Source: Crocinitomicaceae bacterium
GTDB taxonomy: Bacteria > Bacteroidota > Bacteroidia > Flavobacteriales_D > Crocinitomicaceae
Assembly (NCBI GenBank): GCA_030833845.1
Contig: JAURGK010000001.1
Span: 97,468 to 161,467, forward strand
Reading direction: 5' to 3'
DNA length: 64,000 nt
Shown here: piece after piece, positions 7,303 to 64,000 of the stretch
Numbering within the stretch: position 1 is the stretch's first letter
Layout: every line of letters begins with the position of its first letter
Made by a program: the position numbers and the translations under genes
Notes under the pieces: model-generated
Database searches by the model: none
What the model saw: the letters and a program-made list of their open reading frames with translations, nothing else
What the model was told of the DNA's origin: nothing

Positions 7303-8052
7303 TTAAGCTTTTGAATCAGATTTGGCCAATGCATAAATTACCAAACCGAAACCGATTTTATTAACGGCATCACCGATGTTGTAAACGACATCCATCCAAG
7401 GGTTTGGATCTGAACTACCAAACGCACCAAACAAACCGCCTGGAGTTCCGATGATGTATCCTAATGGATAAATAGCCCATCCTACCAATACGAACCAAGC
7501 AAGAATTCGTGTTGCTTTTGCTACCGCTGGACCTGCAGACTCTGCCAACTGTGCAACTTCGCCCATCCAAACAAGGTAAGCAATATAGAAATAAGCTGCA
7601 CCAGAAAGTACACCCCACATAACACTGTTGTCACGATCAACTGCCTCTCCGAAATAGCCGGTAACAAGCATCACTACTGACGCAAAAATTAGCTTCCATA
7701 ACAAACTTGTTTTGGCACCTGCTTTTTTGGTAATCAAGTAGAATTCTACACACATGAGCGGCACAGTAAGCATCCAGTCAACATATCGGAAGAATGTTGG
7801 TGAAGTGGAAGTTTCTGTGAAATAATCACGCATGTAATAATAGTGAACCGCGGCAATGAAAGTGATGAGACCTGAAACCAAAATGGAGGTTCTCCATTTT
7901 TCTTCCATGTTGCGCATTTCCATAAAGAAAAATGCTGCAGCAGCCATCATGGCCATCGTTCCAATGAAAAAGGTAAATGCTGTGTAGGTGTACACATCTC
8001 CTTTTTCAAATAGTGCTTGCACATTGAGTGCACTAGATAAAGAAATTAACAT
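7303..8052 (-). CDS. Proteorhodopsin (light-driven proton pump, DTE motif, Met at tuning position 105)
   Basis: Seven hydrophobic helices. Helix C is RYVDWMLTVPLMCVEFYLI (D97, T101, M105, E108 in green-PR numbering). His75-equivalent is in AAVHYYYMR. The retinal Schiff-base lysine is in YNIGDAVNKIGFGLVIY. Confidence 0.93.
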   Translation of the reverse strand: MLISLSSALNVQALFEKGDVYTYTAFTFFIGTMAMMAAAAFFFMEMRNMEEKWRTSILVSGLITFIAAVHYYYMRDYFTETSTSPTFFRYVDWMLTVPLMCVEFYLITKKAGAKTSLLWKLIFASVVMLVTGYFGEAVDRDNSVMWGVLSGAAYFYIAYLVWMGEVAQLAESAGPAVAKATRILAWFVLVGWAIYPLGYIIGTPGGLFGAFGSSDPNPWMDVVYNIGDAVNKIGFGLVIYALAKSDSKA

Positions 8053-8223
8053 AATAGATAGGTTTAATTTTTCCTACTCTTTTGAGGCTTTTCGGAAACC
8101 GCCTTTAAACATTTGAATAACAATGATATATATTTTTTGTTTAAATATCACTAAAAATTATTCAACAAAATATAAAAAACCTAAACTACTTAATGTCAAT
8201 AAATTATTAAAAACCTAGTAAAA

Positions 8224-13104: not shown

Positions 13105-15777
13105 TTAATATTTTACAATTCTTTGAACGTTATAGGACGTTTCGCTTTGAATTGATATCAAATAAGTACCTGAGGTTAAAGATGACAAATCGAGGAGGTA
13201 TTCCATACCATTAATAAAATTCTCAACGATGATTTTGCCACTTAGATCTGTCAAGATTAAGGATGCTGAAATTTGGTTATTGAATGAAATTTTCACCTCT
13301 CCAGAAGTTGGATTTGGTGAAATTTGAGCACTTAATTCTAGGTCATTCAATCCAAGAATACCATCCACTCCATCGCAGTTTTCATCTATTCCGTTGCCTT
13401 GGGTGTCTGGGGCTCCAGGATAGACTGCGTTGTTGCTGTCATCGCAGTCTCCGTTTTGAGTGGAATAACCAACAATTGGATCACAAGAAACTGTAGGGTT
13501 ACCAATTCCAAATCCATCACCATCACCATCGAAATAATAATTCAAGAACGTAAGGCCTTCATCTACCTGGCCATCACAATTGTTATCCAATCCATCACAG
13601 ATCTCCGGTGCACCCGGATAAATGGTATTGTCCATATCATCACAGTCGCCACCGATTGTAATAGTGTTGGCTGGTTGAACGCAAGTTACAACACCTGTAG
13701 CATCGTCACCAAAGCCATCTTGATCGGCATCGATATAGTAGGCCACTGGATATGTGATGGAGGCATCGTTATCGTTACAATCATCAAATGCCAATACATA
13801 ACCATTGGGTTGATCACATCCGGTAATAGACACATTATAATTACCTACCTGATCATTATCTAAATCCTGATACCAAATCGTATTTGGATTGATCGCCGCA
13901 TCGGCATCGTTACAATCTAGGTTGTTGGATACGTAACCTAAAGGTGCATTACAAAGGAGTGTATCGTTAGAAGGATCTCCAAATCCGTCGCCATCCGCAT
14001 CCACATAATAAAGACTTGGTGTAATGGAAAGGGCATTACCCCAAACTGAAACATTGTCCATGCGCAAGGTAGAGGTAGCAGTTGCTTGACTAGTCACATA
14101 GAACCTAAAAGTAACGCTTGCAATATTGGCAAAAGCTGCTGGTAGATTCACAGTATCTGCCAAAAATACATTACCATTCCAAGCAGATCCGATGGTGTCG
14201 ATGTCTGAGGCGAAGTTGTCTAGGCTTGAACGTAAGTGGATTGTTGGAGTACCCCCCGTTGAACTCGTGCGGTGGTTGAATGCCAATTTAGACAAACTTA
14301 AATTCGTACAGTTCGCACCTGTGAGGGTGAATTCATTGTATTGATTTAAGTCTAAAACAGCACTTTGATTCCAACCGCTGCGGTTAAAAATACCACCACC
14401 GGCTGCACAGTTTGTCCCAGTGGCTGAAAAGTCTGAGAAAGTCCAGTTGGCACTAGAGTTAGTTGCAGCTACGTCTTGAACAGAACAATCCGTTGTGCCA
14501 GCAAATTCATAGATACCTAATTGTAAAGGTGCATCAAAACCGCTGCAATCTTCATCAATACCGTTGCCCGGAATGTCAAAAGCACCTGGGTAAATTGCAT
14601 TATTGGTGTCGTCACAATCCAAATCGTTAGCAACGTATCCTGCAATGGGACTACAACCAACTTGAGATACAGCGGCATTTCCAAAACCATCATTATCTAG
14701 ATCTTGATAATAGGTAATTGAGCCAACGATCGATAAATTCAGCGTGATGGTACTATCACAACCATTTGTATTTTGTGTGAGTTGCGTGTAGGTCCCAGAT
14801 GCGGTATAAGTTTGACCATTGAGCGTATAGTCTCCACAATTGGTGATGTTCAAGGTGGATGTCGTAGGATTATTGATCGTCAGATTTAAATTAATGATTG
14901 AATCGCAACCCGCCGCATTCGCATTGCTGAGTGTCTGTACGTAGGTGCCTGAAGAAGTGTATGTTTGTGCGTTGAGTGTATAGCTTGAACAAGCTGTAGC
15001 ACTCATGGTATTATAAGTGATACAAGAAGTTGCAGAAGAAGGCGTTACCGATGTCCAGGTCTCTCCTGCACGTATTTCATCTATTTCAAAAGTACCAATT
15101 CCCGTTGCCTGACGCAGTGCAATGGATTGGATACCATTTGTTGGCCATGAAGAACTGCCCTGAGAGTTAGTAGCACCTGCTACGGGTTCAGCAGCTCCAG
15201 GAATAGGATTCAACCATATACTCGCATCAATGCCCCCACCTGCATTTTGAGCAGCCTTGGCAACAACAAAATACGTTGTATTTGGATTTAGATCTTGTGC
15301 GATGTAATCAGGAGTCACGGCTCCTCCACTCGTATTTAAAATACCAAGTTTAAATGTAGTTGCTGTGGACCCAAGTGCGACATATAATCTTGGGAAATAA
15401 ATGGACAATGATGATCCGGTAGTACCCCCAAAAGCTATGAAATAACTACCTGTGGCCGTCATATTGGATAAATCAGTCACGTTGATTAAAAATGAAAAAT
15501 AGCCCACATTGCCTGAAGTTGTGAATGGAAAATTGATGTCCTCTGCAACCGAACCAGACATCGCAACCCTATTTCCTTGTGGTATTGGGAGGCCAGGATA
15601 AACCAAACTATTGCCACTTCCTGAAGGTGTAGTCAATGCTGTGATTGGCCCTGTTGTTCCGCTGTGAACAGTCCAACCATTGGCTGAAGCTAGGCCGCTG
15701 AAGTTAAATGGCTCATAAAGCTGAGCTGAAATATTAAAAGTAAAAAAGACAAACAATGTAAGTAATACTCTAATCAT
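13105..15777 (-). CDS. T9SS-secreted protein with a LamG-like N-terminal region and multiple MopE-like putative metal-binding Cys/Asp repeats
   Basis: Start placed at MIRVLLTLFVFFTFNISAQ (signal peptide). Repeated modules have the form Y.D.D.DGFG...C....GYV.N..DC.D....I.PGA.E..(D)G.D..CDG. The C-terminal T9SS sorting domain is ISPNPTSGEVKISF...SGTYLISIQSE...RIVKY. Confidence 0.8.
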   Translation of the reverse strand: MIRVLLTLFVFFTFNISAQLYEPFNFSGLASANGWTVHSGTTGPITALTTPSGSGNSLVYPGLPIPQGNRVAMSGSVAEDINFPFTTSGNVGYFSFLINVTDLSNMTATGSYFIAFGGTTGSSLSIYFPRLYVALGSTATTFKLGILNTSGGAVTPDYIAQDLNPNTTYFVVAKAAQNAGGGIDASIWLNPIPGAAEPVAGATNSQGSSSWPTNGIQSIALRQATGIGTFEIDEIRAGETWTSVTPSSATSCITYNTMSATACSSYTLNAQTYTSSGTYVQTLSNANAAGCDSIINLNLTINNPTTSTLNITNCGDYTLNGQTYTASGTYTQLTQNTNGCDSTITLNLSIVGSITYYQDLDNDGFGNAAVSQVGCSPIAGYVANDLDCDDTNNAIYPGAFDIPGNGIDEDCSGFDAPLQLGIYEFAGTTDCSVQDVAATNSSANWTFSDFSATGTNCAAGGGIFNRSGWNQSAVLDLNQYNEFTLTGANCTNLSLSKLAFNHRTSSTGGTPTIHLRSSLDNFASDIDTIGSAWNGNVFLADTVNLPAAFANIASVTFRFYVTSQATATSTLRMDNVSVWGNALSITPSLYYVDADGDGFGDPSNDTLLCNAPLGYVSNNLDCNDADAAINPNTIWYQDLDNDQVGNYNVSITGCDQPNGYVLAFDDCNDNDASITYPVAYYIDADQDGFGDDATGVVTCVQPANTITIGGDCDDMDNTIYPGAPEICDGLDNNCDGQVDEGLTFLNYYFDGDGDGFGIGNPTVSCDPIVGYSTQNGDCDDSNNAVYPGAPDTQGNGIDENCDGVDGILGLNDLELSAQISPNPTSGEVKISFNNQISASLILTDLSGKIIVENFINGMEYLLDLSSLTSGTYLISIQSETSYNVQRIVKY

Positions 15778-15850
15778 GATATTTTTTTTTATTCTATAAA
15801 AATACGCAATTCTATTCTTTTGCAAATAAAATTTAAGTAAAGGATATATT

Positions 15851-18141: not shown

Positions 18142-18411
18142 TTAACGACGTAATCCTAATTCTTTGATCAAAGCACGGTATTTCTCAATATCTTTCGCCT
18201 TGAGGTAATCAAGTAAACTACGGCGCTTACCAACGAGCAACTGAAGTGCACGTTGTGTACCGAAGTCTTTGCGGTTCTTTTTCAAATGCTCAGTAAGGTG
18301 AGCAATACGAAAGGTGAAAAGAGCAATTTGCCCCTCTGTTGAACCGGTGTTAGTTTCCGAACCACCGTGTTTTGCGAAGATTTCTTTCTTCTTTGCTGAA
18401 TCTAAATACAT
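18142..18411 (-). CDS. rpsO: 30S ribosomal protein S15
   Basis: 89 aa: MYLDSAKKKEIFAKHGGSETNTGSTEGQIALFTFRIAHLTEHLKKNRKDFGTQRALQLLVGKRRSLLDYLKAKDIEKYRALIKELGLRR. The ORF-track N-terminal extension to 18666 is rejected. Confidence 0.97.
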   Translation of the reverse strand: MYLDSAKKKEIFAKHGGSETNTGSTEGQIALFTFRIAHLTEHLKKNRKDFGTQRALQLLVGKRRSLLDYLKAKDIEKYRALIKELGLRR

Positions 18412-18468
18412 GCTAATATTTTTGTAAATGATTATTATGTAGACTGGCCACCTTGGCCAATACGGCTG

Positions 18469-18476
18469 CAAATATA
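18469..18476 (-). promoter_or_regulatory. -7 promoter box TAtaTTTG (minus strand) for rpsO
   Basis: Plus-strand CAAATATA, 57 nt upstream of the rpsO ATG. A palindromic hairpin TGGCCA-CCT-TGGCCA (18445-18459) lies in the predicted 5' UTR. Confidence 0.45.
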
Positions 18477-18525: not shown

Positions 18526-18533
18526 TATCTTTG
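18526..18533 (+). promoter_or_regulatory. -7 promoter box TAtcTTTG placed immediately before the riboswitch
   Basis: Exact TAnnTTTG ending 2 nt before the P1-like 5' arm of the riboswitch. Confidence 0.5.
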
Positions 18534-18535
18534 TC

Positions 18536-18699
18536 CTGTTCTTGGGTATTCGCTTGTCGAACTTAAAAAGGAATCCGGTTAGAATCCGGAGCTGTATCTG
18601 CAGCTGTAAGTGTTTGAAAAGTATTTCCAATTTGCCACTGCGCTTGCGGGAAGGCTGAAAATGCAAAAAGCACGAGCCAGAAGACTTGCCTTAGAACAG
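18536..18699 (+). promoter_or_regulatory. Cobalamin (B12) riboswitch aptamer
   Basis: The conserved strings appear in canonical order. AAAAAGGAATCCGGTTAGAATCCGGAGCTG...CAGCTGTAAG is nearly collinear with the E. coli btuB leader GGGAAUCCAGUGCGAAUCUGGAGCUGACGCGCAGCGGUAAGG. GCCACTG is at 18634-40 and GGGAAGGC at 18648-55. The B12 box GAGCCAGAAGACTTGCC is at 18674-90. Closing helix is CTGTTCT (18536-42) / AGAACAG (18693-99). Confidence 0.88.
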
Positions 18700-18727
18700 C
18701 GTGAAGACTTCAGATTAAAGTCGGTAT

Positions 18728-18766
18728 CGCCCGGGGCTTCGTATACCCCGGCCGCTCCACTTTTTT
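18728..18766 (+). terminator. Possible riboswitch expression platform (terminator-like hairpin plus T6)
   Basis: Stem CCGGGG/CCCCGG (18731-36 and 18746-51), extendable by CG/CG across one mismatch. The T6 run at 18761-66 starts 7-9 nt after the stem, so this is not a canonical terminator. Confidence 0.3.
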
Positions 18767-18800
18767 CCATGTCCTTGTTTAATTTTTAAATTTTCAAAAC

Positions 18801-20054
18801 ATGAAAAAAGGATTATTATTTGCCGCTGTGTTATGCAGCTTTGGGCTTTTAGCTCAACAGTACACACACCAAGTACTCATTGCCAATGAGGGCTTCTTTG
18901 ATTTTCAAACCAACGCCATTCTCGAACCTGCTACAATAGGCAGCTATGACCCCATTTCTCAGACCTATACCGTTGTAGACACCCTAGAGGGCCAACGATT
19001 TAGCTCAGACGTAGTCATTGACGGGAATGTCTACTTTGTAGCTGCCGATACAAAAATCTTCAAATACGACCTCAATACACATCAGGCCCTTGGCAGCATT
19101 AGCCTCCCTGGTGTACGCAACCTAGCAGTTGCAGGAAATAAACTTGTTGCCACACGTGGCGAGTATCTTCAAACCTATGATTCTTATTTATCTGTTTTTG
19201 ATAAAAACACGCTTCAATTATTGGTTGCTTTTGACACCATTCAAGGCCCCAAATGGGCAACTCAAAATGTAGTGGTGGTGAATAACATCGCTTACATTGC
19301 TGTGAATAACGCATATGAATGGGGGAATGAAAAAGGAATCATTGGGCAACTAAACCTCAATACACTCAGCTATGGTTCGGAAATCGACTTGGGGCCGGAA
19401 GGAAAAAATCCAGACAACCTTTTTGTCTTTAACAATGCGCTTTATTCGGTGAATAATAAAGACTGGTCTGGAACATCTGTTTCCAAAATAGATTTTAATG
19501 GCTCTGTAAATACCCAAAATATTTCAAATGCCACTACAGGTTGTGGCACTTCAGCACTCAGAGAGGATAAATTAATTTATCAAATCTCCCTCGAAAATAC
19601 ACTCAACGATTACAATCTTCTTGACATGAGCGCAGTTGGGCCAGTTGCAGGAATCAGTATGAATTTTTACGAGCTTTCCTTTAATGCTATTGAGAATTTG
19701 CTTTACACTTCAACAACTGATTTCTTTTCACAAGGAGCAGTACAAATCTTCGATGCAAACAACGCCTTAACTCACCAATTTAATGTGGGCGTATCACCCG
19801 GCACCATTGTATTTGATATTCGTTCAAGTGCCAACTTGTTAGAATCAAAATCAAATTTAAGCATCTTCCCCAATCCATCGAACGGTGTTTTTAACTTAAA
19901 TGGCCTTGATCAGTCCACAAACTATACGGTGCACAATGCAGCAGGACAAGAAATTCTTAGAGCTAATGCAAGTACGCTGGATCTAAATGAATTTAACAGT
20001 GGGATCTATTTTTTACATTATGGCTCGACTTGTTACAAACTTGTCAAAAATTAA
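18801..20054 (+). CDS. T9SS-sorted secreted protein with a repetitive beta-propeller-like body (YncE/BtuG-like by pattern). It is the sole gene under the cobalamin riboswitch.
   Basis: Signal peptide MKKGLLFAAVLCSFGLLAQQ. About 330 aa of recurring blade-like beta segments (e.g. VYFVAADTKIFKYDLNT, NKLVATRGE..YLSVFDKNT, NIAYIAVNN...IIGQLNLNT, NALYSVNNK..SVSKIDFNG, GVSPGTIVFD). T9SS CTD is LSIFPNPSNGVFNLNG...SGIYFLHYGSTCYKLVKN. Confidence 0.8.
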   Translation: MKKGLLFAAVLCSFGLLAQQYTHQVLIANEGFFDFQTNAILEPATIGSYDPISQTYTVVDTLEGQRFSSDVVIDGNVYFVAADTKIFKYDLNTHQALGSISLPGVRNLAVAGNKLVATRGEYLQTYDSYLSVFDKNTLQLLVAFDTIQGPKWATQNVVVVNNIAYIAVNNAYEWGNEKGIIGQLNLNTLSYGSEIDLGPEGKNPDNLFVFNNALYSVNNKDWSGTSVSKIDFNGSVNTQNISNATTGCGTSALREDKLIYQISLENTLNDYNLLDMSAVGPVAGISMNFYELSFNAIENLLYTSTTDFFSQGAVQIFDANNALTHQFNVGVSPGTIVFDIRSSANLLESKSNLSIFPNPSNGVFNLNGLDQSTNYTVHNAAGQEILRANASTLDLNEFNSGIYFLHYGSTCYKLVKN

Positions 20055-20076
20055 TTCCAAACTACAACACAAAAAA

Positions 20077-20102
20077 GGCTGTCCAAAAGGATGGCCTTTT
20101 TT
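20077..20102 (+). terminator. Intrinsic terminator after the riboswitch-controlled gene
   Basis: 8-bp stem GGCTGTCC/GGATGGCC (two G-U pairs) with loop AAAA, followed by T6. Confidence 0.7.
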
Positions 20103-20111
20103 GTGTTTGTT

Positions 20112-20119
20112 TATCTTTG
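20112..20119 (+). promoter_or_regulatory. -7 promoter box TAtcTTTG, 4 nt upstream of the PRTase ATG
   Basis: TATCTTTG-TTGT-ATG. This geometry predicts a leaderless or near-leaderless transcript. Confidence 0.5.
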
Positions 20120-20123
20120 TTGT

Positions 20124-20618
20124 ATGCAAACGATCCTCAATCAGCAGCAAATAGAGCAAAAAATAATCAGGCTTGGGCATCAACTCATAGAAGATGCCTT
20201 TGATCAAGATCAAATATACATAGGTGGAATTGTAGGTAACGGCTTTACGTTTGCCCAACAATTGGCAGAGGTCATTACTCAAAATAGCAATATTCAAATT
20301 GTTTGTTTTGAAATCAAGCTCAATAAGGATGAACCTTGGAACCACCCAATTGAATTTTCAATTGAGCACAAACGCTTAAAAAATTCATACATCATTCTTG
20401 TTGATGATGTTGTGAATAGTGGTAAAACCATGCAATATGCTTTACTGAAGTTTTTGGAACAAGCCACCAAGGCAATCAAAACCGTTGCCCTTATTGATCG
20501 ACAACATCGCCGTTATCCGATTAAAACAGATTTTGCAGGCTTAAGTCTTTCTACAACACTCAAAAATCATGTAGAAGTGGACCTCAGCGAACAGAATGCT
20601 AAAGTATTTTTATACTAA
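20124..20618 (+). CDS. Phosphoribosyltransferase family protein (PyrR-like type I PRTase)
   Basis: PRPP-binding motif YIILVDDVVNSGKTM. Start set at MQTILNQQQIEQKI, because the upstream part of the ORF overlaps the terminator and promoter. Confidence 0.8.
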   Translation: MQTILNQQQIEQKIIRLGHQLIEDAFDQDQIYIGGIVGNGFTFAQQLAEVITQNSNIQIVCFEIKLNKDEPWNHPIEFSIEHKRLKNSYIILVDDVVNSGKTMQYALLKFLEQATKAIKTVALIDRQHRRYPIKTDFAGLSLSTTLKNHVEVDLSEQNAKVFLY

Positions 20619-28414: not shown

Positions 28415-29929
28415 ATGAAGTACTTTCTTTTAGGTCTGGCCTTTTTTTTATTTGGATGGCTGAACGGACAAAATGTATTGGTATCTGCTGGAAATATTTT
28501 CGAAGGCGAACCATATCTTGCCATCAACCCAACCAATCCACAACATATGGTGGCCGCATGGATGGGCTATCAATGGAATCAAAAAATTGTCATTAAAAAC
28601 GCCGTATCCTTTGATGGTGCATTGAGTTGGAGTACGCCCACTTGGCAAGCCCATCAGCAAAGCGGAAACACAAGTGCCGATGTTTCTTTGGCCTTTAATG
28701 CTCAAGGAGAGCTTTTTATGAGCTATGTAGATTATGATAATATCAATTTTAGCAACGGTCAGGTGGTTTGTAGAAAGTCAGTTGATGGTGGGCTTAGTTG
28801 GGGCGCCGCTGTAATTGCCTGTTCGGATATTATTTGCCCAAACCAACTATGTATTGACCGACCGTGGCTTGCAATAAATCCCTTGAACGGAGCAATTGTC
28901 ATTACGAGTATGAATGCCGATCAGCCGAGTATTGTACAGGCTCCATTCCATCCTTACCTATCCATTTCTACAGACAATGGCCTCTCATTTACTACACAAT
29001 ACTTGGACAGCGCACCTTATTTATCTGGCAGCGCTATCAAACAACCTATGCCTTCACCAGCCTATGCCAATGACGGTCTTTTTATGGCTATTTACCCAAG
29101 TTATGAGCCAGCGCAAAGTATTTTGCCTCGAGTTATAGAGGTACAAAAAACATCATTGGGTTCTAATTACAGTTACCAAGTCGCGTTTCAAGGATTGGGC
29201 TTTGGCACCAACAACGACACCCTTAAAGCAGGCCCGCATCTATCACTCAATCCGAACAATAGCTCCAATGCAGCTTATTTTTTTGTTACGGATGTTTTTG
29301 GCGATCCTGATATAGCCATGATCGAAAAAAATGGCGGCGCTTGGTCTGCACCCGTGCGTGTCAATAATGATGTGCCAAACAATGGCAATATTCAAGACCT
29401 GGTGTGGGCAGACTATGATACAGACGGAGATTTAGGCGTTTGTTGGAGAGACCGACGTGCTGGTTTGCCAAATAATTACCAAACCACAACCCAAATATAT
29501 TGTCGGATTCAACATAATGGCAACTGGGGAGATGAATTTGTAATTACCCCCATGGTTGAGAATGATTCCATTTTGCTTGAAAATGGAAACGATTTTTTGA
29601 ATGTGCAATTTGAAAACAACACGCTTTTAACACTATGGGGTGATGTGCGTAGTGGTACACTTAAAATATACCTCAACCGATTCAATCAATTAGACAGCAC
29701 CAACCAAATTCATGAAATACCAACTTTTCAAAACGCCTTCCCCAACCCAAGTGCTGCTATTTTTGAGATTCCACCTTCTTTTATACATAAAGAATTCACG
29801 GTATTTGACGCCAATGGAAAATTGTTGCTCAATGGGATTCTTTCCCAATACCTGGACTTAGGAGCCTTTGAAAATGGTACATATTTCTTAAATGTTGCAG
29901 ACACCCAATTGAAGTTGCTCAAAAATTGA
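28415..29929 (+). CDS. T9SS-sorted BNR/Asp-box repeat (sialidase-fold-like) protein
   Basis: Signal peptide. Asp-box motifs SFDGALSW, SVDGGLSW and STDNGLSF. T9SS CTD is FPNPSAAIFEIPP...NGTYFLNVADTQLKLLKN. Confidence 0.8.
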   Translation: MKYFLLGLAFFLFGWLNGQNVLVSAGNIFEGEPYLAINPTNPQHMVAAWMGYQWNQKIVIKNAVSFDGALSWSTPTWQAHQQSGNTSADVSLAFNAQGELFMSYVDYDNINFSNGQVVCRKSVDGGLSWGAAVIACSDIICPNQLCIDRPWLAINPLNGAIVITSMNADQPSIVQAPFHPYLSISTDNGLSFTTQYLDSAPYLSGSAIKQPMPSPAYANDGLFMAIYPSYEPAQSILPRVIEVQKTSLGSNYSYQVAFQGLGFGTNNDTLKAGPHLSLNPNNSSNAAYFFVTDVFGDPDIAMIEKNGGAWSAPVRVNNDVPNNGNIQDLVWADYDTDGDLGVCWRDRRAGLPNNYQTTTQIYCRIQHNGNWGDEFVITPMVENDSILLENGNDFLNVQFENNTLLTLWGDVRSGTLKIYLNRFNQLDSTNQIHEIPTFQNAFPNPSAAIFEIPPSFIHKEFTVFDANGKLLLNGILSQYLDLGAFENGTYFLNVADTQLKLLKN

Positions 29930-45730: not shown

Positions 45731-48700
45731 ATGAAAAAACTACTCCTTATTTTCTTGATCGTATCGTCTTGGAAATTCAGTGCGCAACAAACTGAATTTT
45801 ACGGCTTTGTTAGTCCTGGTTTAGCTCACCTTGTGCCAGCACCTGTCCAAGATAATGGCAAAAAAGACATCATTGTGCCCAACTTTAAAGGCCGAGAACT
45901 ACCATTAGAAATCTCCAGCAATACGCATCATCCAGATTGGGTGTGGCAGCAGCATCAATCGGTACAAAAATCGACAACGGCGAGTATCCTTTGGCAAGTC
46001 CAGGGAATTGGAAATGGCATTTCGCCCCCAGATCCTACTGGTGAGGCAGACTCGACAGTATATATACAAGGTACGAATGCAGGGAGCGGAGGATCCTATA
46101 AAATTTTCAACAAAACCACAGGGGCCGCAGTAAGTGGCACCCTAGTGATGGCATCCTTAGGATCACCGAATGTGACAGGATTAGGCGACCCTGTTGTGCT
46201 CTATTACAAAACGGCCAAACGCTGGATCATTACACAATTTTCTACGCAGTCTCAAAAGAAGCTGCTTGTTTATGTATCCCAAACCAGCAACCCGCAAGGT
46301 GCCTATTATTTCTATCAGTTTACCTGTCCAAATTTTCCGGATTATCCCAAATGGAGTATTTGTGAATCTTCAGACGCCCTGTTGGCCTCTACCAATGAAG
46401 GTGGCCCCCCACGTGTTTATGCTATGAAATTAAGTGCCCTAGTAAGTGGTACAACTTCACCATTTATAGGTGTGCCAATTGGTTATACGCTCAACGGCTT
46501 TGGTTTTCAATCCATTACTCCCGTTGATTTAGAAGGTGATTTACCTGCACCCATTGGGCAAAAACCATTATTTGTGCGGCATCGAGACGACGAAAAACAC
46601 AGCAATGGCTCACCCGATAGCCCAACCAATGATTGGATAGAAATTTGGGAAATGACCATCAACTGGACAAACAATACCGCAAGTGTGGCAAAAATTCAAG
46701 ATGTACCCATAACCGAAATAGATTCAGATTTATGTGGATTAACTAGTTTTTCTTGCATCCCACAACCAGGCACAACAGTCAAATTGGACCCCTTACGTGA
46801 ATGTGTAATGTACAAAGCTCCTATGCGAATATTTGCAGACCATCAGGCTATGGTGTTGTGTTTGGCTACAGATGTCAATGGAAATAACCGTGCAGGAGTG
46901 CGTTGGTTAGAGTTGCGCCGACCAACAGGCAGCACAGGTTCATGGAGTTTATATCAAGAAGGGACTTATGCCCCTGGAACAACCCTCAATCGCTGGATGC
47001 CTGCAATCAACATTGACAAATATGGCAATATCATGATGGCCTATTCTACCTCGAGCAGTAATACGCCAGACTACCCCTCCATTCAATTGACAGGAAGAAA
47101 AGCTTGCGACCCGTTGGGTCAAATGACTGTGCCAGAAACAATCATCAAACAAGGGCTTTCAGCCCGTACGTCCAACACCCGTTGGGGTGATTACCACCAC
47201 ATGTGCATTGATGATTTCGACGGTCTGACATTCTACTACACAGGCGTTGTAATGAATAATAGCAATAATATTGTGACCAACGTATCTGCATTCAAAATGG
47301 ACCCAGACACCTTAGATTTAGCACTAATTGGTGCTTTTACTACACAAAATGGGGGCATATGTGGCTCTTCGACCCAAATAGGAGTGGTAGTAGAAAACCG
47401 GGGCTTGAATGCCATCAATTCATTTGAATTGAATGCCACCATAGGTTCTACTACTAGCAACAACCAAACCTTTAGCAGTTTAAACCTGGCCAATTATCAA
47501 TCTATTGACACGATTTATTATACCGTTGGTGGACTTCAACCTGGTTGGAATACTGTTTTGCTAAATCTTGCAAATATCAATGGCATGGGCAATGATCAAA
47601 ACACTTGTGACGACCAATTTAATTTAGAAATTCAAGTTTCTGGAACCTTGTCTATTAATGTTCTACCACTCATCGTTCAGCAACCCTCATGCAACGGCAA
47701 TGACGGTATCATTGATCTCAATGTTTCTGGAGCTTCTGGAACTTTAACTTTCCAATTGGGCACACTTCCACTTCAGAATGCTCCCGTCTTTAATGGTTTA
47801 AGCGCAGGAATGTACCCTTATACCGTAGAAGATTCTTTTGGCTGCGCAGTATCAGGTTCTGTAGACTTACTTTCAAGTACTAATATATCAGCATCTGTGA
47901 CTCAATTGGTAGGCATAGCTTGTGCCGGCGACCAAACGGCAAGCATTGAAGTCAATCCAAATGGAGGTACTGCTCCATACAGCTTCAGCATCAACAACGG
48001 AGCAGACCAGCCAAGCAATACTTTTGTCAATTTAGGTGCAGGGACCTATAACATTGGCATCATTGATGCCAACGGTTGCAGTGCACAAATTGAATATGTG
48101 ATAAGTGCGCCAAGTGCCTTGACAGGCAATGTAATCCCAACGATGATCAGCTGCAATGGCGCCAATGATGGCGCCCTTTCAGTACAAGTTTCAGGCGGAA
48201 CCGCTCCTTATTTGTATGAGGTCAATGGAATGAGTTCAAGTAACTCGTTTTTTAATAATCTTTCTGCAGGAACTTATTCAGTAAATATAACTGATGTCAA
48301 TGGATGCATCCAAAACGTCAGTGCTACGATAGTAGAACCGGATGCTTTGCAAGTTACGGCCAATACAACAGTTTCAAATTTTAACGACGGAACAATTTCT
48401 ATCAGCGCGAGTGGCGGAAATGCGCCATATAGTTATTCAATCGATGGCTTTGTTTACTATAGCGGATCTTTCTTCTCTAATTTACTAGTTGGGAATTATA
48501 CCTGCTATGTGAAAGACAATAACGGTTGTATTTCAACCATTATTGTTACCGTAAATAGCTCTAGCTTGACGGATCTTAGCTTTGAAGCTATTGCTATTTA
48601 TCCCAACCCAAACAGTGGGAAGTTTCAAATTGAAATCAACGGAGCACAAGGGCAAGAAGTGGAATTAAGGTTATTTGATTTGAGTGGGCAACTTGTTGGA

Positions 48701-48835
48701 ACTTTTCAACTCAACACCTCTAATGGTAGTGTAAATAAAACGATAGAATTGAGTCCGAAAATTTCGGCAGGTATCTATTATCTTGGTGTCTACGACGGTC
48801 AAAGATCAGCTGTTTTGGAATTGGTGAAAGAATAA
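45731..48835 (+). CDS. Large T9SS-sorted adhesin-like protein: N-terminal propeller-like region, SprB-type repeats, CTD
   Basis: Signal peptide. RWGDYHHM motif in the N-terminal roughly 530 aa. Repeats include SCNGNDGIIDLNVSGASGTLTF, CAGDQTASIEVNPNGGTAPYSFSINNG, SCNGANDGALSVQVSGGTAPYLYEVNG and NDGTISISASGGNAPYSYSIDG. CTD is IYPNPNSGKFQIEI...AGIYYLGVYDG...LELVKE. Confidence 0.82.
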   Translation: MKKLLLIFLIVSSWKFSAQQTEFYGFVSPGLAHLVPAPVQDNGKKDIIVPNFKGRELPLEISSNTHHPDWVWQQHQSVQKSTTASILWQVQGIGNGISPPDPTGEADSTVYIQGTNAGSGGSYKIFNKTTGAAVSGTLVMASLGSPNVTGLGDPVVLYYKTAKRWIITQFSTQSQKKLLVYVSQTSNPQGAYYFYQFTCPNFPDYPKWSICESSDALLASTNEGGPPRVYAMKLSALVSGTTSPFIGVPIGYTLNGFGFQSITPVDLEGDLPAPIGQKPLFVRHRDDEKHSNGSPDSPTNDWIEIWEMTINWTNNTASVAKIQDVPITEIDSDLCGLTSFSCIPQPGTTVKLDPLRECVMYKAPMRIFADHQAMVLCLATDVNGNNRAGVRWLELRRPTGSTGSWSLYQEGTYAPGTTLNRWMPAINIDKYGNIMMAYSTSSSNTPDYPSIQLTGRKACDPLGQMTVPETIIKQGLSARTSNTRWGDYHHMCIDDFDGLTFYYTGVVMNNSNNIVTNVSAFKMDPDTLDLALIGAFTTQNGGICGSSTQIGVVVENRGLNAINSFELNATIGSTTSNNQTFSSLNLANYQSIDTIYYTVGGLQPGWNTVLLNLANINGMGNDQNTCDDQFNLEIQVSGTLSINVLPLIVQQPSCNGNDGIIDLNVSGASGTLTFQLGTLPLQNAPVFNGLSAGMYPYTVEDSFGCAVSGSVDLLSSTNISASVTQLVGIACAGDQTASIEVNPNGGTAPYSFSINNGADQPSNTFVNLGAGTYNIGIIDANGCSAQIEYVISAPSALTGNVIPTMISCNGANDGALSVQVSGGTAPYLYEVNGMSSSNSFFNNLSAGTYSVNITDVNGCIQNVSATIVEPDALQVTANTTVSNFNDGTISISASGGNAPYSYSIDGFVYYSGSFFSNLLVGNYTCYVKDNNGCISTIIVTVNSSSLTDLSFEAIAIYPNPNSGKFQIEINGAQGQEVELRLFDLSGQLVGTFQLNTSNGSVNKTIELSPKISAGIYYLGVYDGQRSAVLELVKE

Positions 48836-58374: not shown

Positions 58375-60720
58375 TTATTGTCCTGATTTGAGCCAAGGAT
58401 AATACTTGCTACCAATTTTCAGTAAGTAAAATCCAGAGGGCAATGCACTTGTATTGATGGTCGGAAGACTAGGTGAAATGCTTCCTGAACTTAGTATTTT
58501 ACCATCCATTTGATAGACCTCAAAAGCACATTCATTTTGAATGCCACTGACTGATATTTGATCTATGCCCGGGTTTGGATAAAGCCGTAGCTCATCGGAA
58601 ATTGGAGCATTCGGTGCTGATAACACGGGCTCATTGGTTATGCTAAAATGATCAAAAGCAGCCTCAGTAATATTCGGACTACCAGGATAATCCGCAATCG
58701 TTACACTCAACATCATGGTATTGCTAAAAGGAATTAAATTATCGAGGGCAATACTTTTGTATTCCCACTCCATGGGATTTCCTTGCGGACCTATGATTTG
58801 TTCAATGAGCACACTTTGGAGGCCATTGGACAACCAAATACTGAGGGTGTCATCGAAAGTTCCTGGCCCATGAAAACAGAAAAAAGAACGGGCATAATTC
58901 AGATAGGGGGTGCTCATGCCATTCAAATCAAAAATGGGTGATTTCAAGGTCGTAAATCCATTGTCGACATCATTTTGGTCCGGGTTTGGTGTCGTGCCAT
59001 TGCCGGTGAGCATACATTGATCAAAGCAGTCCAGTGGCGAATCATTGTCAAATACTGTATTGGTAGTTGCATTAGGTTTGGCGCGTTCCCAATTGCCTGT
59101 TTGGGCATTGGAAAGTACGGTCCATCCAAAGTCGAAGGTAAAGTCGTCGTAATATCCTTTGTTGAGATAGACGATCAATTGTTGGGTATTGGCATCAATT
59201 TGTACAGTTGAGCATTTGGTTTGATAAGACCATTTGCCAACCACCAGCTCATAGCTATCCTGGTAATAAAGTGTGAAATCTTCCTGTCCCAATCCATTAG
59301 AGACGCCCTGATGAATGAGCTGAGGGTGGACCAATTTGATTTCTGCATTTGAAATGGGCAGGTTTGTTGCTTGGTCCAAAACCTTGATTTGCAATGCATA
59401 AGGAGGGATAGGCAATAAATTGAAATTTTGGGTTGTTGTAAAGCCCTCTACTAATGAAACTTGAACTGTTTGCGGATAATAACCTGGTTTATTGACCTCC
59501 ACGACATAGTTACCCGAGGTGGCTATCCCGGTTTTATAAACCCCCTGGGCATTGGTATTTTCTTGCATTGCTGCCCCGAGTAAGGAAACACTCACCCCGG
59601 AGAGTACTTGCCCGCTTGTCAGGTCCTTTACCACACCTACCAAACTAGCTGCCGGAGCATAATTGATTTTCAAGATGTAAAGACCTTCAGTGATATCTGC
59701 TGCCACAGCTTTGTCTGAAGCAAAAAAAGGATATACTCCCCAACAACCATCAAAACCTGGAGTTTGGCCTGGGTAGGTATCATAGCGCCCGAGCTGAATG
59801 AGATTTGCCGGGTCATGGGCATCATGAACAACGATGCCATCGCTGTAGTAACTTGTAATTAAATAATCGCCTTTTACGTGAGTGTTGTGTGGTATGACAC
59901 TCGTGCCTTGCATTGTTTGTATGCGGTCTAGCTCTGTAATTTGTTGTAAATTACTGATATCATAGGCGGCTACGTATGCACCCGAAATTTCATCGGTGGT
60001 GTAGACCGTTTGCCCATTGGCACTTGGCCATATGTTGTGGGTAAAAAAGTTTGGTGTATTGTGGGTTGCTAAAAGTACTGGGTTACTATGATCTGATACA
60101 TCCACAATGCAAAAATAACCATCATAAATATGCGCTGTGTATAAGGTGTCGTTGCGTTCAAAACCGTCGTGCACATAAGAAATATCAAATACACCAACTT
60201 CCTGGGGCTGCATTGGATTGTTATTTAAATCCAAAATTATGACCCCTTGATTTTCGCGATTGGCTCCAAAAATATACCCGTAACCACTCTCAGAGGTAAA
60301 ACAAGTATGCGCACTTTGCCAAGGATTAGATGCAGGACCTGTATAGATGGCAGTGGGTAGGTTGGTGGATTGAGGCAGCGGGCTAAGATCAATGATCAAC
60401 AGTCCGTCTTCAGCCTCGGTAGTGACATAAGCGTAATCTCCGAATACACAAGGGTCTCGCCAGATGGATTCGGTGCCTGCCATCCAAAATACCTCTTGGG
60501 GTTGGGCGCCATTTGTAATGTTTACAATCGACGTGCCTTTGGAGGTTCCTACAATGGCATATTCATTGCCGAATTCATCGGTGTATCCCCAAACGTCATT
60601 GAGATTTGCCCCATGCAAAGCCTGGTAATCAATATGAGAAAGCGAATCAATTGAGAATTGACCATAAGCCAAAGAAAAAAAAGCACATTGAACAATGAAA
60701 AGAATTCGCAGTATATACAT
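58375..60720 (-). CDS. T9SS-sorted LVIVD-repeat (choice-of-anchor-B-like) beta-propeller protein with CarboxypepD_reg-like and MAM-like domains
   Basis: Signal peptide. LVIVD-type strands GLLIIDLS, GVIILDLN, YFCIVDVS, GIVVHDAH and GLYILKIN. VGVVKDLTSGQVLSGVSVSL (Cpd-reg-like). CTD is LRLYPNPGIDQISV...SGFYLLKIGSKYY. Confidence 0.8.
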   Translation of the reverse strand: MYILRILFIVQCAFFSLAYGQFSIDSLSHIDYQALHGANLNDVWGYTDEFGNEYAIVGTSKGTSIVNITNGAQPQEVFWMAGTESIWRDPCVFGDYAYVTTEAEDGLLIIDLSPLPQSTNLPTAIYTGPASNPWQSAHTCFTSESGYGYIFGANRENQGVIILDLNNNPMQPQEVGVFDISYVHDGFERNDTLYTAHIYDGYFCIVDVSDHSNPVLLATHNTPNFFTHNIWPSANGQTVYTTDEISGAYVAAYDISNLQQITELDRIQTMQGTSVIPHNTHVKGDYLITSYYSDGIVVHDAHDPANLIQLGRYDTYPGQTPGFDGCWGVYPFFASDKAVAADITEGLYILKINYAPAASLVGVVKDLTSGQVLSGVSVSLLGAAMQENTNAQGVYKTGIATSGNYVVEVNKPGYYPQTVQVSLVEGFTTTQNFNLLPIPPYALQIKVLDQATNLPISNAEIKLVHPQLIHQGVSNGLGQEDFTLYYQDSYELVVGKWSYQTKCSTVQIDANTQQLIVYLNKGYYDDFTFDFGWTVLSNAQTGNWERAKPNATTNTVFDNDSPLDCFDQCMLTGNGTTPNPDQNDVDNGFTTLKSPIFDLNGMSTPYLNYARSFFCFHGPGTFDDTLSIWLSNGLQSVLIEQIIGPQGNPMEWEYKSIALDNLIPFSNTMMLSVTIADYPGSPNITEAAFDHFSITNEPVLSAPNAPISDELRLYPNPGIDQISVSGIQNECAFEVYQMDGKILSSGSISPSLPTINTSALPSGFYLLKIGSKYYPWLKSGQ

Positions 60721-60723
60721 TTT

Positions 60724-63700
60724 CTATGGTTTTATTATTTTTTTCGTGTAGGTGCCAAGTGGTGTATCAATTTGAATCAGATAAGTGCCAGATAAATAGG
60801 CACTCATATCTATGAAACTTTCAGCAAAGAGATCTGTGGCATGCATCGATTCTTGATAAAGCTGCCTTCCTGTCAAATCGAGCAATTTAAGTTGTGCCTC
60901 CCCATTAATTGGCCCACTCAATTCAACGGTGGTTAAACCAGCTGTTGGGTTGGGAAAAATTTTAATCTCTGCATTTTGATTCATTTCTGGGACATCTAAA
61001 GTGAAGCCCACGGTGAAATCATAACGATGATAATGGCCAAAATCACCTGGGAAAAATTCGATGTAGCTCCCCCCTACTTTACGCAAGCGCATCTGACCAG
61101 CGGTTTCACCTTCTACTTGTGCCGAATACCAAAATGACAAACCATCATGATCAGTATCCTCTATAATAATTGAATAACAACCCGGAGCCAAGTCAAAAGT
61201 ATCTTTGTATTGAGTGGAATTCTGAAGGTTATTGCGCTCAAACAATACATTGCCAGCATGGTCTAATAGCTGGTAACTGTTTTCAACAGCCTTGTTGTTG
61301 GTGGTTAGCCACACAAAAAACGGCCCATCTATGCGCTCTGGGGCATCGTATTTTACTGTCATTAAACTATTCTGATTGTATAAATCTGGGCCGATATTTC
61401 CATTGACATCAGCAACCCAGGCCGTGAAGGTATAGGAGCTGTCTTGCTCGTACCACCAATTCATATCAGTAATAGGAATTTCAACGACAGCTTGTTCCAT
61501 AAAGTCAAGATTACCCGTCCAATCATAGACCATGTTGGAACCGTAATCGAGCCAACAAAAAATTCTACAGGAAGTCAGTGGCTGAGCACCGGTATTTTTG
61601 AGAATAATTCTCGGGTTTTGACATGTAGGATTCCACTTGGAATAATACTCGTAGTTATTAGGATTGAGCACATCAACAATGGCCGCATCATAATCAAAAT
61701 TTGGTGCTGAATAAGATATCAAATCGTAGGCAGCAATGTAATTTCCACCTGCTTGCCCCGGATCATTGGCGGGTACGGAATTGACAGCGTAATCTAATTC
61801 TACGGTATCGCCGGGGCTGACATAAGGTGTGAGTTCAAATTCAAAATCCTTGACCATATCGCCAGGGCACCAACCTTCTCTGGCATAGGGCCACGTACCA
61901 CCTTGGCCAATATTGGGGTTGTCTCCGCACACCATCGCATCCCAAATGCTCCAATTGAAGCGCGGGATGCCATCAACCTTGATTTGATGACTGTTATTGA
62001 CCCATTCACAACAAGCGTAGTCTCCAACTTGTCCGTGGCCAGACATGCGCGTTTTGATTTTAAACATTTCGGCGCTATCTGAAAGCACAATGGGTTTGGC
62101 TTGCAAGACAGCATCTGCGGCCATTTGACCAAAATTATAAGATTTGGATTCGGCCCAAATGGGTTCCCTCTTGATGACATCTCTAGGAGGAGTACCCTTG
62201 ATGAATGCAAATTTCAAATCGAGAAGTTCTTGGGTATTATGTGCAGATAGGTCAACAAGCCCGTGCAGGTATTGCTGATAGTCCGTCACATCATAGATCC
62301 ACGTAAATCCGTTCGGGCCTAAATCAAATTGGATACCATAGGGTGTAATGTAACGAGCAATCTCCACATTATTGATGACTTCATATGGTGGGTTGTAAAC
62401 CACAATGGGTTGGTTATTTAAGGAAAGAGTTGTTTGCACTGGTGTTGAACTTAGCACAGTTCCGTTGCCGTCAATGATTGCCTCCACACCCTCAGGTGCG
62501 CCAATGTAGGTTTCAATCAATTCAAAATGCCTGTTTAATGGGGCCTGTTCAAATACAACTACGGGCTCTTTAAGAATTGGTTGATTCACTAAGGTGGTGC
62601 TCATGCCTTGCGCAACATCCTGGCCAATTTTCAGTACTGGCCTTAAATTCTGCGCTTGTGCCCCTGCATAAACGCCAAAAATAGGGTCTGGTGCTACCAT
62701 CCCGAATTCAGAGGGCATGAGGGTATGGCCGTGGCCACTCAAATCAATGGCATAGCGCAGGTTATCAAAATCATGGTATAGCACCAAATCATTCCAATTA
62801 GGATGCGTATTATCTACCTTTTGTTGGTAGAAAGAGGCGATGGTAGTTTCATTCAAAGCCGCTTTATAAACACGGAGTTCGTCTATTTTTCCACTCCAAA
62901 AATTGGCAGCATTGCCATTGGCTCCAATGATGAATTTTTGTAAGTAGCCTATTTCTCTGTTTTTGTTCGTGCCACTATGCCAAAGCGTGCCATTTTTATA
63001 AATAAACATTTGACCGCTGGCTTGATCCTTGACAAAGGCCCAATGATTCCATTGGTAATCACCAATATCATTGCTTGTGGCAACCTTATTGATTCTGTCG
63101 TAGCCTGTTTCATCACCGGCATCGAAATAAATATTGTTATTGCTCCAAGGCATGTGAATGTTAAAGACCCTGCGGCCAGCGCTGTCAAGTGCTTCCATGA
63201 TGCTTGTATTTACACCCATATTGAATTCTGAACGCGCCCAAAATTCAACGGTAAAGGCGCCGCCAATTTCCTCGTTAACAAATGAAGACATGGTATAATT
63301 TGAACCCGAAAGCGAGAGTGTGCCGTTGCGGCTTCCATAGGCTAAAGACATCGGGCTTGAAGTCTGCTCCATAAGGAATTCCAAGTTCTGACTGGCTGGA
63401 AAATCATTGTTGTTTAAATCAAATTGCACCAAGATATTTGACGTGCCGTCCCAAACAAAATCTTGAAAAAATACAAAGGTATTCCAACCCGCAACTAAGG
63501 GTGCATTTGCCATACCCGGGCCAAAGGAAGCATTAAAAACACCTAAAAATGGCGCTTGAATAAACTCCGAAAGGGTAGTTTGCTGGGTATGGGCCATCCA
63601 TATTTGGGGCCATTGTAATTCTCCTCCAGTTACAAGATTGAGTTGTATTGAACTAATCGGCCCTGCTTGAATTCCTGCAGCGCTAAGTTCTGCTGCAGTC

Positions 63701-64000
63701 ATGATGAACTGATAACGACTACCTTGAGCACTATTGACAAAAGGTTGTGTTGACACAACACTACCGTTATTGAATGCAACATGACTCAGCGGCGCCCCTC
63801 CTGGGCCTGTATCAGGCCTTGTATATACTGGCATTTGGTATTGATCCACTTCTGTATATGGAAGCGGTTTGAGGTTAATTTGAGCCGGACTGGCGCAATT
63901 GGCTAAAAACTGCATTCCGTTGACGGCAACTGAATCAAATGCACCGGTATGGTCGTAAACTTTTGTGTAAGTCAAATAATCCCATTCGCCGCAGTTGTAT
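60724..64000 (-). CDS. Very large T9SS-sorted protein with LamG/ConA-like and PNGase F-like domains. The 5' end lies outside the window.
   Basis: The ORF stays open to nt 64000, and the M at 63975 in the ORF track is an internal TTG. LamG block is FTVEFWARSEF...WNHWAFV...SGKIDELRVYKAAL. PNGase F-like blocks are RYITPYGIQFDLGP..WIYDVTDY and RMSGHGQVGDYACCEWVNNSHQIKVDG...CGDNPNIGQGGTWPYAREGWCPGDMV. CTD is IKIFPNPTAGLTTVEL...SGTYLIQIDTPLGTYTKKIIKP. Confidence 0.82.
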   Translation of the reverse strand, partial: YNCGEWDYLTYTKVYDHTGAFDSVAVNGMQFLANCASPAQINLKPLPYTEVDQYQMPVYTRPDTGPGGAPLSHVAFNNGSVVSTQPFVNSAQGSRYQFIMTAAELSAAGIQAGPISSIQLNLVTGGELQWPQIWMAHTQQTTLSEFIQAPFLGVFNASFGPGMANAPLVAGWNTFVFFQDFVWDGTSNILVQFDLNNNDFPASQNLEFLMEQTSSPMSLAYGSRNGTLSLSGSNYTMSSFVNEEIGGAFTVEFWARSEFNMGVNTSIMEALDSAGRRVFNIHMPWSNNNIYFDAGDETGYDRINKVATSNDIGDYQWNHWAFVKDQASGQMFIYKNGTLWHSGTNKNREIGYLQKFIIGANGNAANFWSGKIDELRVYKAALNETTIASFYQQKVDNTHPNWNDLVLYHDFDNLRYAIDLSGHGHTLMPSEFGMVAPDPIFGVYAGAQAQNLRPVLKIGQDVAQGMSTTLVNQPILKEPVVVFEQAPLNRHFELIETYIGAPEGVEAIIDGNGTVLSSTPVQTTLSLNNQPIVVYNPPYEVINNVEIARYITPYGIQFDLGPNGFTWIYDVTDYQQYLHGLVDLSAHNTQELLDLKFAFIKGTPPRDVIKREPIWAESKSYNFGQMAADAVLQAKPIVLSDSAEMFKIKTRMSGHGQVGDYACCEWVNNSHQIKVDGIPRFNWSIWDAMVCGDNPNIGQGGTWPYAREGWCPGDMVKDFEFELTPYVSPGDTVELDYAVNSVPANDPGQAGGNYIAAYDLISYSAPNFDYDAAIVDVLNPNNYEYYSKWNPTCQNPRIILKNTGAQPLTSCRIFCWLDYGSNMVYDWTGNLDFMEQAVVEIPITDMNWWYEQDSSYTFTAWVADVNGNIGPDLYNQNSLMTVKYDAPERIDGPFFVWLTTNNKAVENSYQLLDHAGNVLFERNNLQNSTQYKDTFDLAPGCYSIIIEDTDHDGLSFWYSAQVEGETAGQMRLRKVGGSYIEFFPGDFGHYHRYDFTVGFTLDVPEMNQNAEIKIFPNPTAGLTTVELSGPINGEAQLKLLDLTGRQLYQESMHATDLFAESFIDMSAYLSGTYLIQIDTPLGTYTKKIIKP

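Follow-up and report, generated by a model that had tools for sequence, protein, structure and literature searches.

A cobalamin riboswitch-controlled BtuG homologue with a type IX secretion sorting domain in a Crocinitomicaceae bacterium

Few microbes make vitamin B12 (cobalamin) but most need it, so that the mode of its capture shapes communities. In the Bacteroidota phylum, the only well-studied extracellular capture machinery is the lipoprotein array (i.e. BtuG, BtuH, BtuJ and BtuK) of gut Bacteroides. BtuG is a surface lipoprotein exclusive to Bacteroidetes; it carries a lipobox cysteine and a lipoprotein export signal and is encoded in 106 of 109 btuB operons (PMC6143338). Its N-terminal linker and lipid form the hinge of a lid on the transporter BtuB (PMC10404256), and all accessory B12 binders of B. 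thetaiotaomicron are lipoproteins encoded within btu operons (PMC12751083). Here we describe a gene of a Crocinitomicaceae bacterium (assembly GCA_030833845.1, contig JAURGK010000001.1, positions 97,468-161,467; this whole 64 kb stretch is hereafter the window) that stands alone behind a cobalamin riboswitch and encodes a beta-propeller with a C-terminal sorting domain (CTD) of the type IX secretion system (T9SS).

We are highly confident that the product of this gene, hereafter the T9SS propeller, is a riboswitch-controlled BtuG homologue with a T9SS tag. The main parts of the unit are as follows.

18527-18707, + strand: cobalamin riboswitch aptamer (RF00174), found by Rfam cmscan
18801-20054, + strand: open reading frame (ORF) of 417 amino acids (aa), the only sizeable + strand ORF between aptamer and terminator
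18801-18857, + strand: putative Sec signal peptide, aa 1-19, MKKGLLFAAVLCSFGLLAQ, by inspection of the translation
18858-19835, + strand: seven-bladed beta-propeller, aa 20-345, a remote BtuG homologue
19863-20051, + strand: T9SS type A CTD, aa 355-417 (PF18962, TIGR04183)
20066-20107, + strand: intrinsic terminator, a 19-pair stem (7 of the pairs G-C) with a loop of 4 nt and a T-run behind it

The relationship to BtuG is seen at both the sequence and the structure level. When a family profile built from 20 homologues was searched against the PDB sequences, the only matches besides CTD chains were 3dsm, 8bmy, 8bn0, 8baz, 8bai, 8bmx_D, 8puj, 8p97 and 8okv, with E values of 4e-5 to 2e-3 and two collinear stretches covering the first and last blades. 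All of these entries are BtuG2 and BtuG3 of B. thetaiotaomicron (PMC10404256; bioRxiv 10.1101/2024.02.16.580637). A profile-profile comparison by hhalign with the BtuG sequences of Wexler et al. 2018 (Table S2) gave a probability of 98% and an E value of 2.3e-13 over 294 columns, i.e. the whole propeller. Direct tblastn matches to family members were also obtained with a BtuG orthologue from a related locus that is 32% identical to BT1954. An AlphaFold2 model computed from 91 diverse family members reached a predicted local distance difference test score (pLDDT) of 94.4, with a helix at aa 2-13, the first strand from aa 20 and the CTD as a separate beta-sandwich; it supersedes a first model from 20 close homologues (pLDDT 67, aa 242-290 disordered). 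In a Foldseek search, the top 14 PDB matches to the model are all BtuG1, BtuG2 or BtuG3 (E values 2e-17 to 4e-15, template modelling (TM) scores 0.75-0.82, root-mean-square deviations 2.5-2.8 A). These are followed by the B12 binder BtuK1 (TM score 0.73) and then by generic propellers (TM scores of at most 0.64). The repetitive, blade-like body that a first-pass annotation of this DNA had read from the letters is therefore specifically BtuG-like.

The predicted route out of the cell differs from that of BtuG. By inspection, the N-terminus consists of MKK, a hydrophobic stretch and an A-Q site, with Q-Q/N-Y as the mature start. Its sole cysteine (Cys12) is not conserved among homologues, which have T, W, F, A or L at this position, and the signal is thus not of the lipoprotein type. 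At the other end, aa 355-409 match PF18962 with 35.7 bits (cut-off 27) and TIGR04183 with 30.7 bits (cut-off 23), and the family profile also matches the solved CTDs 7pzj and 8glk. The sorting domain noted earlier is thus confirmed, and the signal peptide is supported by inspection. Among 103 full-length family representatives, 93 carry a CTD, and a convincing lipoprotein signal is absent from all of them. The T9SS sorting domain is the only Pfam or NCBIfam match above cut-off in the ORF; a sub-cut-off Olfactomedin match (20.7 bits) was dismissed as generic propeller noise.

The aptamer, too, is well supported. Across the whole window, cmscan returned one RF00174 match, with 99.6 bits (gathering score 31.5) and an E value of 1.1e-23, which spans model positions 1-189 of 189, i.e. 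the full length; a cobalamin riboswitch had been called by eye at 18536-18699, and this match confirms it. The following elements can be read directly in the sequence.

18526-18533, + strand: Bacteroidota-type -7 promoter box TAtcTTTG, overlapping the first bases of the Rfam match
18536-18542 (CTGTTCT) with 18693-18699 (AGAACAG), + strand: closing helix P1, by sequence inspection
18595-18600, + strand: loop L5, UAUCUG, an aptamer element
18675-18691, + strand: B12 box GAGCCAGAAGACTTGCC, by sequence inspection

The peripheral P6 extension is present as well, with GCCACTG and GGGAAGGC, so that every element previously named, from the -7 box to the B12 box, is in place. The TAnnTTTG motif agrees with the -7 element of Bacteroidota promoters. 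Of 83 related upstream regions, 65 have it in the corresponding place, 4-6 nt ahead of the conserved GTTCTTGGG, and this constant distance to the aptamer argues that the box is no chance match.

We then considered how far the pairing of riboswitch and gene extends. The family is large, with 1123 detectable homologues in a 90% clustered collection and at least 403 representatives (E ≤0.001) in a 50% clustered library; a single-protein scan of metagenome contigs gave one fragment. We compared 80 loci with 10 kb flanks from metagenome-assembled genomes of Crocinitomicaceae, Cryomorphaceae and other Flavobacteriales, in which the protein is 50-79% identical. An aptamer lies 91-142 nt upstream on the same strand in 77 of the 80, that is, in all 77 assessable loci; the remaining three have less than 190 nt of upstream sequence. 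Each of seven diverse related loci contains exactly one RF00174 match (93-106 bits). Close relatives have the gene in the same slot, between rpsO-pnp and phosphoribosyltransferase-murQ-agmatinase, while more distant loci place it in at least four other contexts with the riboswitch always retained. Even among 11 sampled representatives with only 25-48% identity, seven (P0122, P0127, P0150, P0215, P0239, P0235 and P0252) have RF00174 immediately upstream, so the linkage extends well beyond close relatives.

No accompanying transporter gene was found. The terminator starts 12 nt past the end of the ORF and the unit is therefore monocistronic, with ORF 18801-20054 as its only gene, as had been described. 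About 28 ORFs of the window, including all of at least 450 aa, were scanned against Pfam and NCBIfam, and no TonB-dependent receptor and no btu, cob, metE or nrd gene was found among them; a tblastn search of the window with genuine BtuB gave no match either. The same holds for the relatives, as tblastn detected no BtuB homologue within 10 kb of the gene in any of the 80 loci. The suggestion that no transporter or B12 gene adjoins the unit is borne out among the ORFs scanned, and the lack of an adjacent btuB also holds in these loci, in keeping with the proposed genetic uncoupling from a transporter.

We regard as somewhat more probable than its competitors combined a model in which B12 represses the T9SS propeller gene and its product, exported by the T9SS, captures corrinoids for a transporter whose gene lies elsewhere. 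A dedicated promoter would drive the riboswitch, and high intracellular cobalamin would shut off one gene. The propeller would use Sec to cross the inner membrane and, through its type A CTD, the T9SS to cross the outer one; the CTD would then be removed, and the propeller would be surface-attached or released. Under B12 limitation, cobalamin or other corrinoids would be bound in the central pocket of the acidic propeller and then handed on to a TonB-dependent transporter of the BtuB type, whose gene would lie at another place in the genome.

For the binding step, the published ligand contacts of BtuG2 were mapped onto the protein via the hhalign alignment. The BtuG2 loop N54-E55-G56-x-F58 corresponds to N29-E30-G31-x-F33, the family-invariant R133 to R106 and Y316 to Y290, all of which are invariant in the close family. 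Four further contacts (i.e. Y335, Y239, Q219 and S195) are conservatively replaced, for example Y335 by F308, Y239 by W222 and Q219 by N203. BtuG1 is published to have about 60% of the BtuG2 contacts and yet to bind with picomolar affinity, so partial conservation is compatible with corrinoid binding without being proof of it. At -17 (family range -16 to -22), the net charge of the propeller is close to the -18 of BtuG2, whose acidic charge has been proposed to attract B12 electrostatically over long range (PMC10404256).

Several observations count against the model: (i) about half of the BtuG2 contacts (i.e. Q93, S131, W149, W194, W272 and I359) are not conserved; (ii) hhalign aligns the middle blades at low confidence; (iii) the query has no match to PF16819 (DUF5074) at E ≤0.01, and 88 of 91 family members have none, with three weak matches (best 3.5e-4); (iv) no RF00174 was found upstream of four of the 11 distant relatives (P0125, P0133, P0182 and P0224); (v) no BtuB of this organism was located in the 64 kb read; (vi) BtuG acts as a lipid-hinged lid on BtuB, and this hinge is not available to a T9SS cargo; and (vii) no convincing antiterminator was found in the expression platform, so that the OFF direction is drawn by analogy with other B12 uptake genes. 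Regarding (iii), PF16819 matches nine of nine known BtuGs tested and not the query, so that the T9SS propellers form a sister family of BtuG beyond the reach of current models.

Points (i), (iii) and (iv) could also mean that the propeller lost, or never had, corrinoid binding and has another extracellular role (e.g. enzyme or adhesin), with the riboswitch merely coupling it to B12 status. There is a precedent in BtuK2 and BtuL of B. thetaiotaomicron, which are riboswitch-controlled and do not bind cobalamin (PMC12751083). We consider such a role improbable, however, because the clamping loop NEG-F, the most conserved part, and the Arg are invariant, the structural likeness is specific to B12-binding propellers and the riboswitch association persists down to 25% identity.

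One distant relative links the family to B12 uptake and helps to judge its role. In locus L089, the riboswitch is followed by the gene of the T9SS propeller and then, in this order, by genes for a FGE-sulfatase-like protein of 491 aa, a small protein with a CTD, BtuB (E 2e-54 to BtuB2 and BtuB3 of B. thetaiotaomicron) and a DUF5074 BtuG. As this operon holds both btuB and a canonical BtuG, the family appears to be tied to B12 uptake, and its coexistence with a lipoprotein BtuG makes it look accessory rather than a BtuG replacement. This bears on the idea of a BtuG in the strict sense, i.e. a lid docked stably on a BtuB encoded at a distance and attached to lipopolysaccharide via the T9SS instead of by an N-terminal lipid, rather than a separate upstream scavenger. 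The fold and homology are nearest to BtuG and not to BtuH, BtuJ or BtuK, the acidic charge and ligand loop are kept, and in P. gingivalis cargo with a type A CTD is surface-attached, all of which would suit such a lid. By contrast, the presence of the T9SS propeller beside a canonical BtuG and BtuB in one operon suggests different roles, the N-terminal linker and lipid hinge (PMC10404256) are absent, and BtuG genes nearly always adjoin btuB (PMC6143338), which the T9SS propeller gene does in 0 of 80 loci. On balance, a strict BtuG seems unlikely to us.

The solitary gene raises another alternative, namely a corrinoid binder that does not serve the uptake of its own cell and either withholds B12 from competitors or acts as a surface buffer or store. 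Purified BtuG2 can indeed starve B12-dependent competitors (PMC13616437). However, the riboswitch is expected to permit expression only in a cell that is itself short of B12, which is more in keeping with acquisition than with interference, and the L089 relative is co-transcribed with btuB; we thus give withholding or storage little credence compared with capture for the cell's own transporter.

Other features of the relatives were noted in these comparisons. In the most distant clade (25-30% identity), the gene after that of the T9SS propeller always encodes a protein of about 490-500 aa with a FGE-sulfatase-like domain (L089 6329-7804, L090 2166-3668 and L095 9241-10725; identity between the L089 and L090 copies is 41%). 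No PDB sequence matches this protein, and it is not known to be linked to B12. Locus L083, which is P0122 (48% identity), has a riboswitch-controlled propeller with a short, atypical C-terminal tail; a second, BtuG/DUF5074-like propeller lies directly after it (1631-2611, +), is 27% identical to the L089 BtuG over 290 aa and is followed by the contig end. In loci L068-L080, the riboswitch is preceded on its own strand, at a distance of 8 to about 25 nt, by the gene of a TonB-dependent receptor (811-818 aa, CarboxypepD_reg at the N-terminus; e.g. L070 5792-8227, +), so that read-through into the riboswitch unit is conceivable. We rejected this receptor as the missing btuB: its nearest relatives are heme/hemoglobin receptors, only its plug matches E. 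coli BtuB, it is unlike the Bacteroides-type BtuB of L089, and it lies upstream of the riboswitch without a riboswitch of its own. Two large, conserved proteins without Pfam or NCBIfam match also occur near the gene: one of 632 aa between rpsO and the riboswitch in some genomes (L001 7674-9572, L030 7689-9587 and L096 7686-9584, all on the - strand) and, in another clade, one of 886-889 aa encoded on the downstream side (L070 10486-13146, +).

We also analysed how the riboswitch might act on the gene. Between aptamer and start codon, the leader contains the following elements.

18706-18722, + strand: hairpin P13, GACUU-CAGAUUA-AAGUC, directly after P1, from an alignment of 61 distinct sequences
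18723-18758, + strand: imperfect, G+C-rich, terminator-like hairpin, followed by AC and six T at 18761-18766
18800-18811, + strand: start-codon region CAUGAAAAAAGG, complementary to CUUUUUUC(C)AUG at 18760-18771

P13 hardly varies, and 100% of its stem cells in the alignment are paired. The L13 bases CAGAU (18711-18715) are complementary to AUCUG of L5 (within 18595-18600), which makes the two loops a candidate kissing loop. They change jointly and stay complementary, with CCCG facing CGGG in L089 and L090 and CCAG facing CUGG in L083. Cobalamin riboswitches have a regulatory L5-L13 kissing loop, and the observed loop changes match its prediction. Covariation of the CCGG hairpin loop with L13 was looked for and none was found, the partner of L13 being the L5 loop UAUCUG. 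A lower P13 extension (GCG/CGC, with apparent covariation to GAG/CUC) is not claimed, as its register varies among clades.

The hairpin after P13 is variable and ends 2 nt before six or seven U in related leaders. RNAfold predicts for nearly all of 28 related leaders that the stem takes in part of the U-run, two or three U staying unpaired, with hairpin energies of -14 to -20 kcal/mol; the exceptions are L003, L013, L019, L025 and L076. In the upper stem, both sides have changed in seven of eight pairs, and the covariation score exceeds that of all 500 shuffles. A simple terminator scan does not flag 18723-18766, owing to the bulges and the 9-nt loop. Two other pairings are available to these parts. 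The AAAGU of P13 can instead pair with the start of the U-run and lengthen the hairpin, and the U-run is also complementary to the start region AUGAAAAAAGG. In the latter helix, 87.6% of cells pair across the 61 sequences, and one pair is U-A in 28 sequences and C-G in 24, via a synonymous change of AAA to AAG. This switch is only suggestive because it may reflect a single evolutionary event. The complementarity suggests a possible sequestering helix between the U-run and the start-codon region.

Ligand binding would probably lock P13 via the L5-L13 kissing loop. Because P13 shares AAAGUC with the base of the long hairpin, a locked P13 would either free the U-run for the start codon or leave a compact terminator. 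The OFF state could then be reached in two ways: (i) the ligand locks P13 and frees the U-run, and the start codon is sequestered; or (ii) P13 and the compact hairpin act as a terminator. Control may be translational or transcriptional, as both can be built from the same parts. Compared with known cobalamin riboswitches that have an L5-L13 platform, this one is alike in its full-length match to the model, its P6 extension and a P13 after P1 whose loop is complementary to L5. It differs in the unusual gene that it regulates and in a platform made of P13, a long imperfect hairpin and a U-run able to pair with the start codon.

The comparison with described capture proteins can now be made in full. 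With the known BtuGs (i.e. BT1954/BtuG2, BT2095/BtuG3 and BT1490/BtuG1; PF16819), the T9SS propeller shares seven blades, homology over the whole propeller, the NEG-F loop and Arg, strong acidity, an extracytoplasmic location (predicted here), a cobalamin riboswitch and occurrence in Bacteroidota. It differs from them in having a type A CTD instead of a lipobox cysteine and lipoprotein export signal, in lying outside PF16819, in being monocistronic and adjacent to btuB only in the distant L089, and in lacking conservation of the tryptophans that line the BtuG2 pocket. BtuH, BtuJ and BtuK are likewise riboswitch-controlled, additional corrinoid binders that extend capture beyond BtuBG, as is proposed here for the T9SS propeller. 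BtuK1 shares the propeller fold and ranks directly behind BtuG in structural similarity, and BtuJ, which is found on vesicles (PMC12751083), is an analogue of the proposed role as a distal scavenger. By contrast, all three are lipoproteins encoded in btu operons, none is a T9SS substrate, and the folds of BtuH and BtuJ are unrelated.

Hemophores such as HasA and HmuY offer a parallel in concept, in that an exported protein captures a scarce tetrapyrrole-type cofactor for a TonB-dependent receptor, but they differ in fold, ligand and secretion route, and release into the medium is only proposed here. Following this parallel, the propeller might be released by the T9SS as a diffusing 'corrinophore' of very high affinity, a counterpart of hemophores that is recaptured by a receptor encoded elsewhere. 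We consider this version doubtful. If it were true, it would provide long-range B12 scavenging in abundant freshwater Bacteroidota, and the family, with its 403 or more clusters at 50% identity, would be a major unrecognized player in environmental B12 traffic.

A full-text literature search, the coverage of which is incomplete, found no paper that links the T9SS with BtuG or with B12 capture, in line with the initial impression that the arrangement is undescribed; a 2026 review of the Bacteroides system (PMC13616437) does not mention the T9SS. Our results support a propeller of the BtuG type whose predicted export and anchoring route departs from that of BtuG, which has a riboswitch to itself and which is not linked to a transporter gene. 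Members of this large family occur in environmental Flavobacteriales and in other Bacteroidota, and their annotation goes no further than 'T9SS sorting domain protein' or hypothetical. The arrangement points to an undescribed B12-scavenging route for freshwater Bacteroidota. If the capture model is correct, vitamin acquisition would join the known functions of the T9SS, BtuG-type capture would be uncoupled from BtuB genetically and perhaps physically, and the gene would be a clean marker of B12 limitation in freshwater metagenomes and metatranscriptomes. Direct tests are feasible, given a small soluble protein and a 270-nt leader.

Finally, the surroundings of the unit contain further regulatory elements and T9SS cargo. 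The flanking genes are housekeeping genes unrelated to the unit, namely rpsO and pnp on the - strand and phosphoribosyltransferase, murQ and agmatinase genes on the + strand. An S15-Flavobacteria leader (RF03161, 65.3 bits; 18409-18476, -) lies upstream of rpsO (about 18142-18411, -) and is divergent from the riboswitch unit, with a gap of about 50 nt between the two regulatory RNAs. A second TAtcTTTG box is located in the descending arm of the terminator (20112-20119), 4 nt before an in-frame ATG of the phosphoribosyltransferase/PyrR-like gene (at 20124). The transcript of this gene may therefore be leaderless or nearly so, with translation beginning downstream of the ATG at 20091 given by the ORF finder. 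Farther away, a DUF805b RNA motif (RF02914, 48.8 bits, E 7.5e-11) at 8071-8105 (-) lies just upstream of a 249-aa ORF at 7303-8052 (-). At least six proteins with a T9SS CTD are encoded in the window. Besides the T9SS propeller, type A proteins are found at 13105-15825 (-), 28415-29929 (+), 45731-48835 (+), 58375-60720 (-) and 60724-63975 (-), and the domains in these five include MopE metal-binding repeats, SprB repeats, LVIVD/CarboxypepD_reg and Laminin_G/PNGase-F-like domains. The density of T9SS cargo in the window is unusually high.

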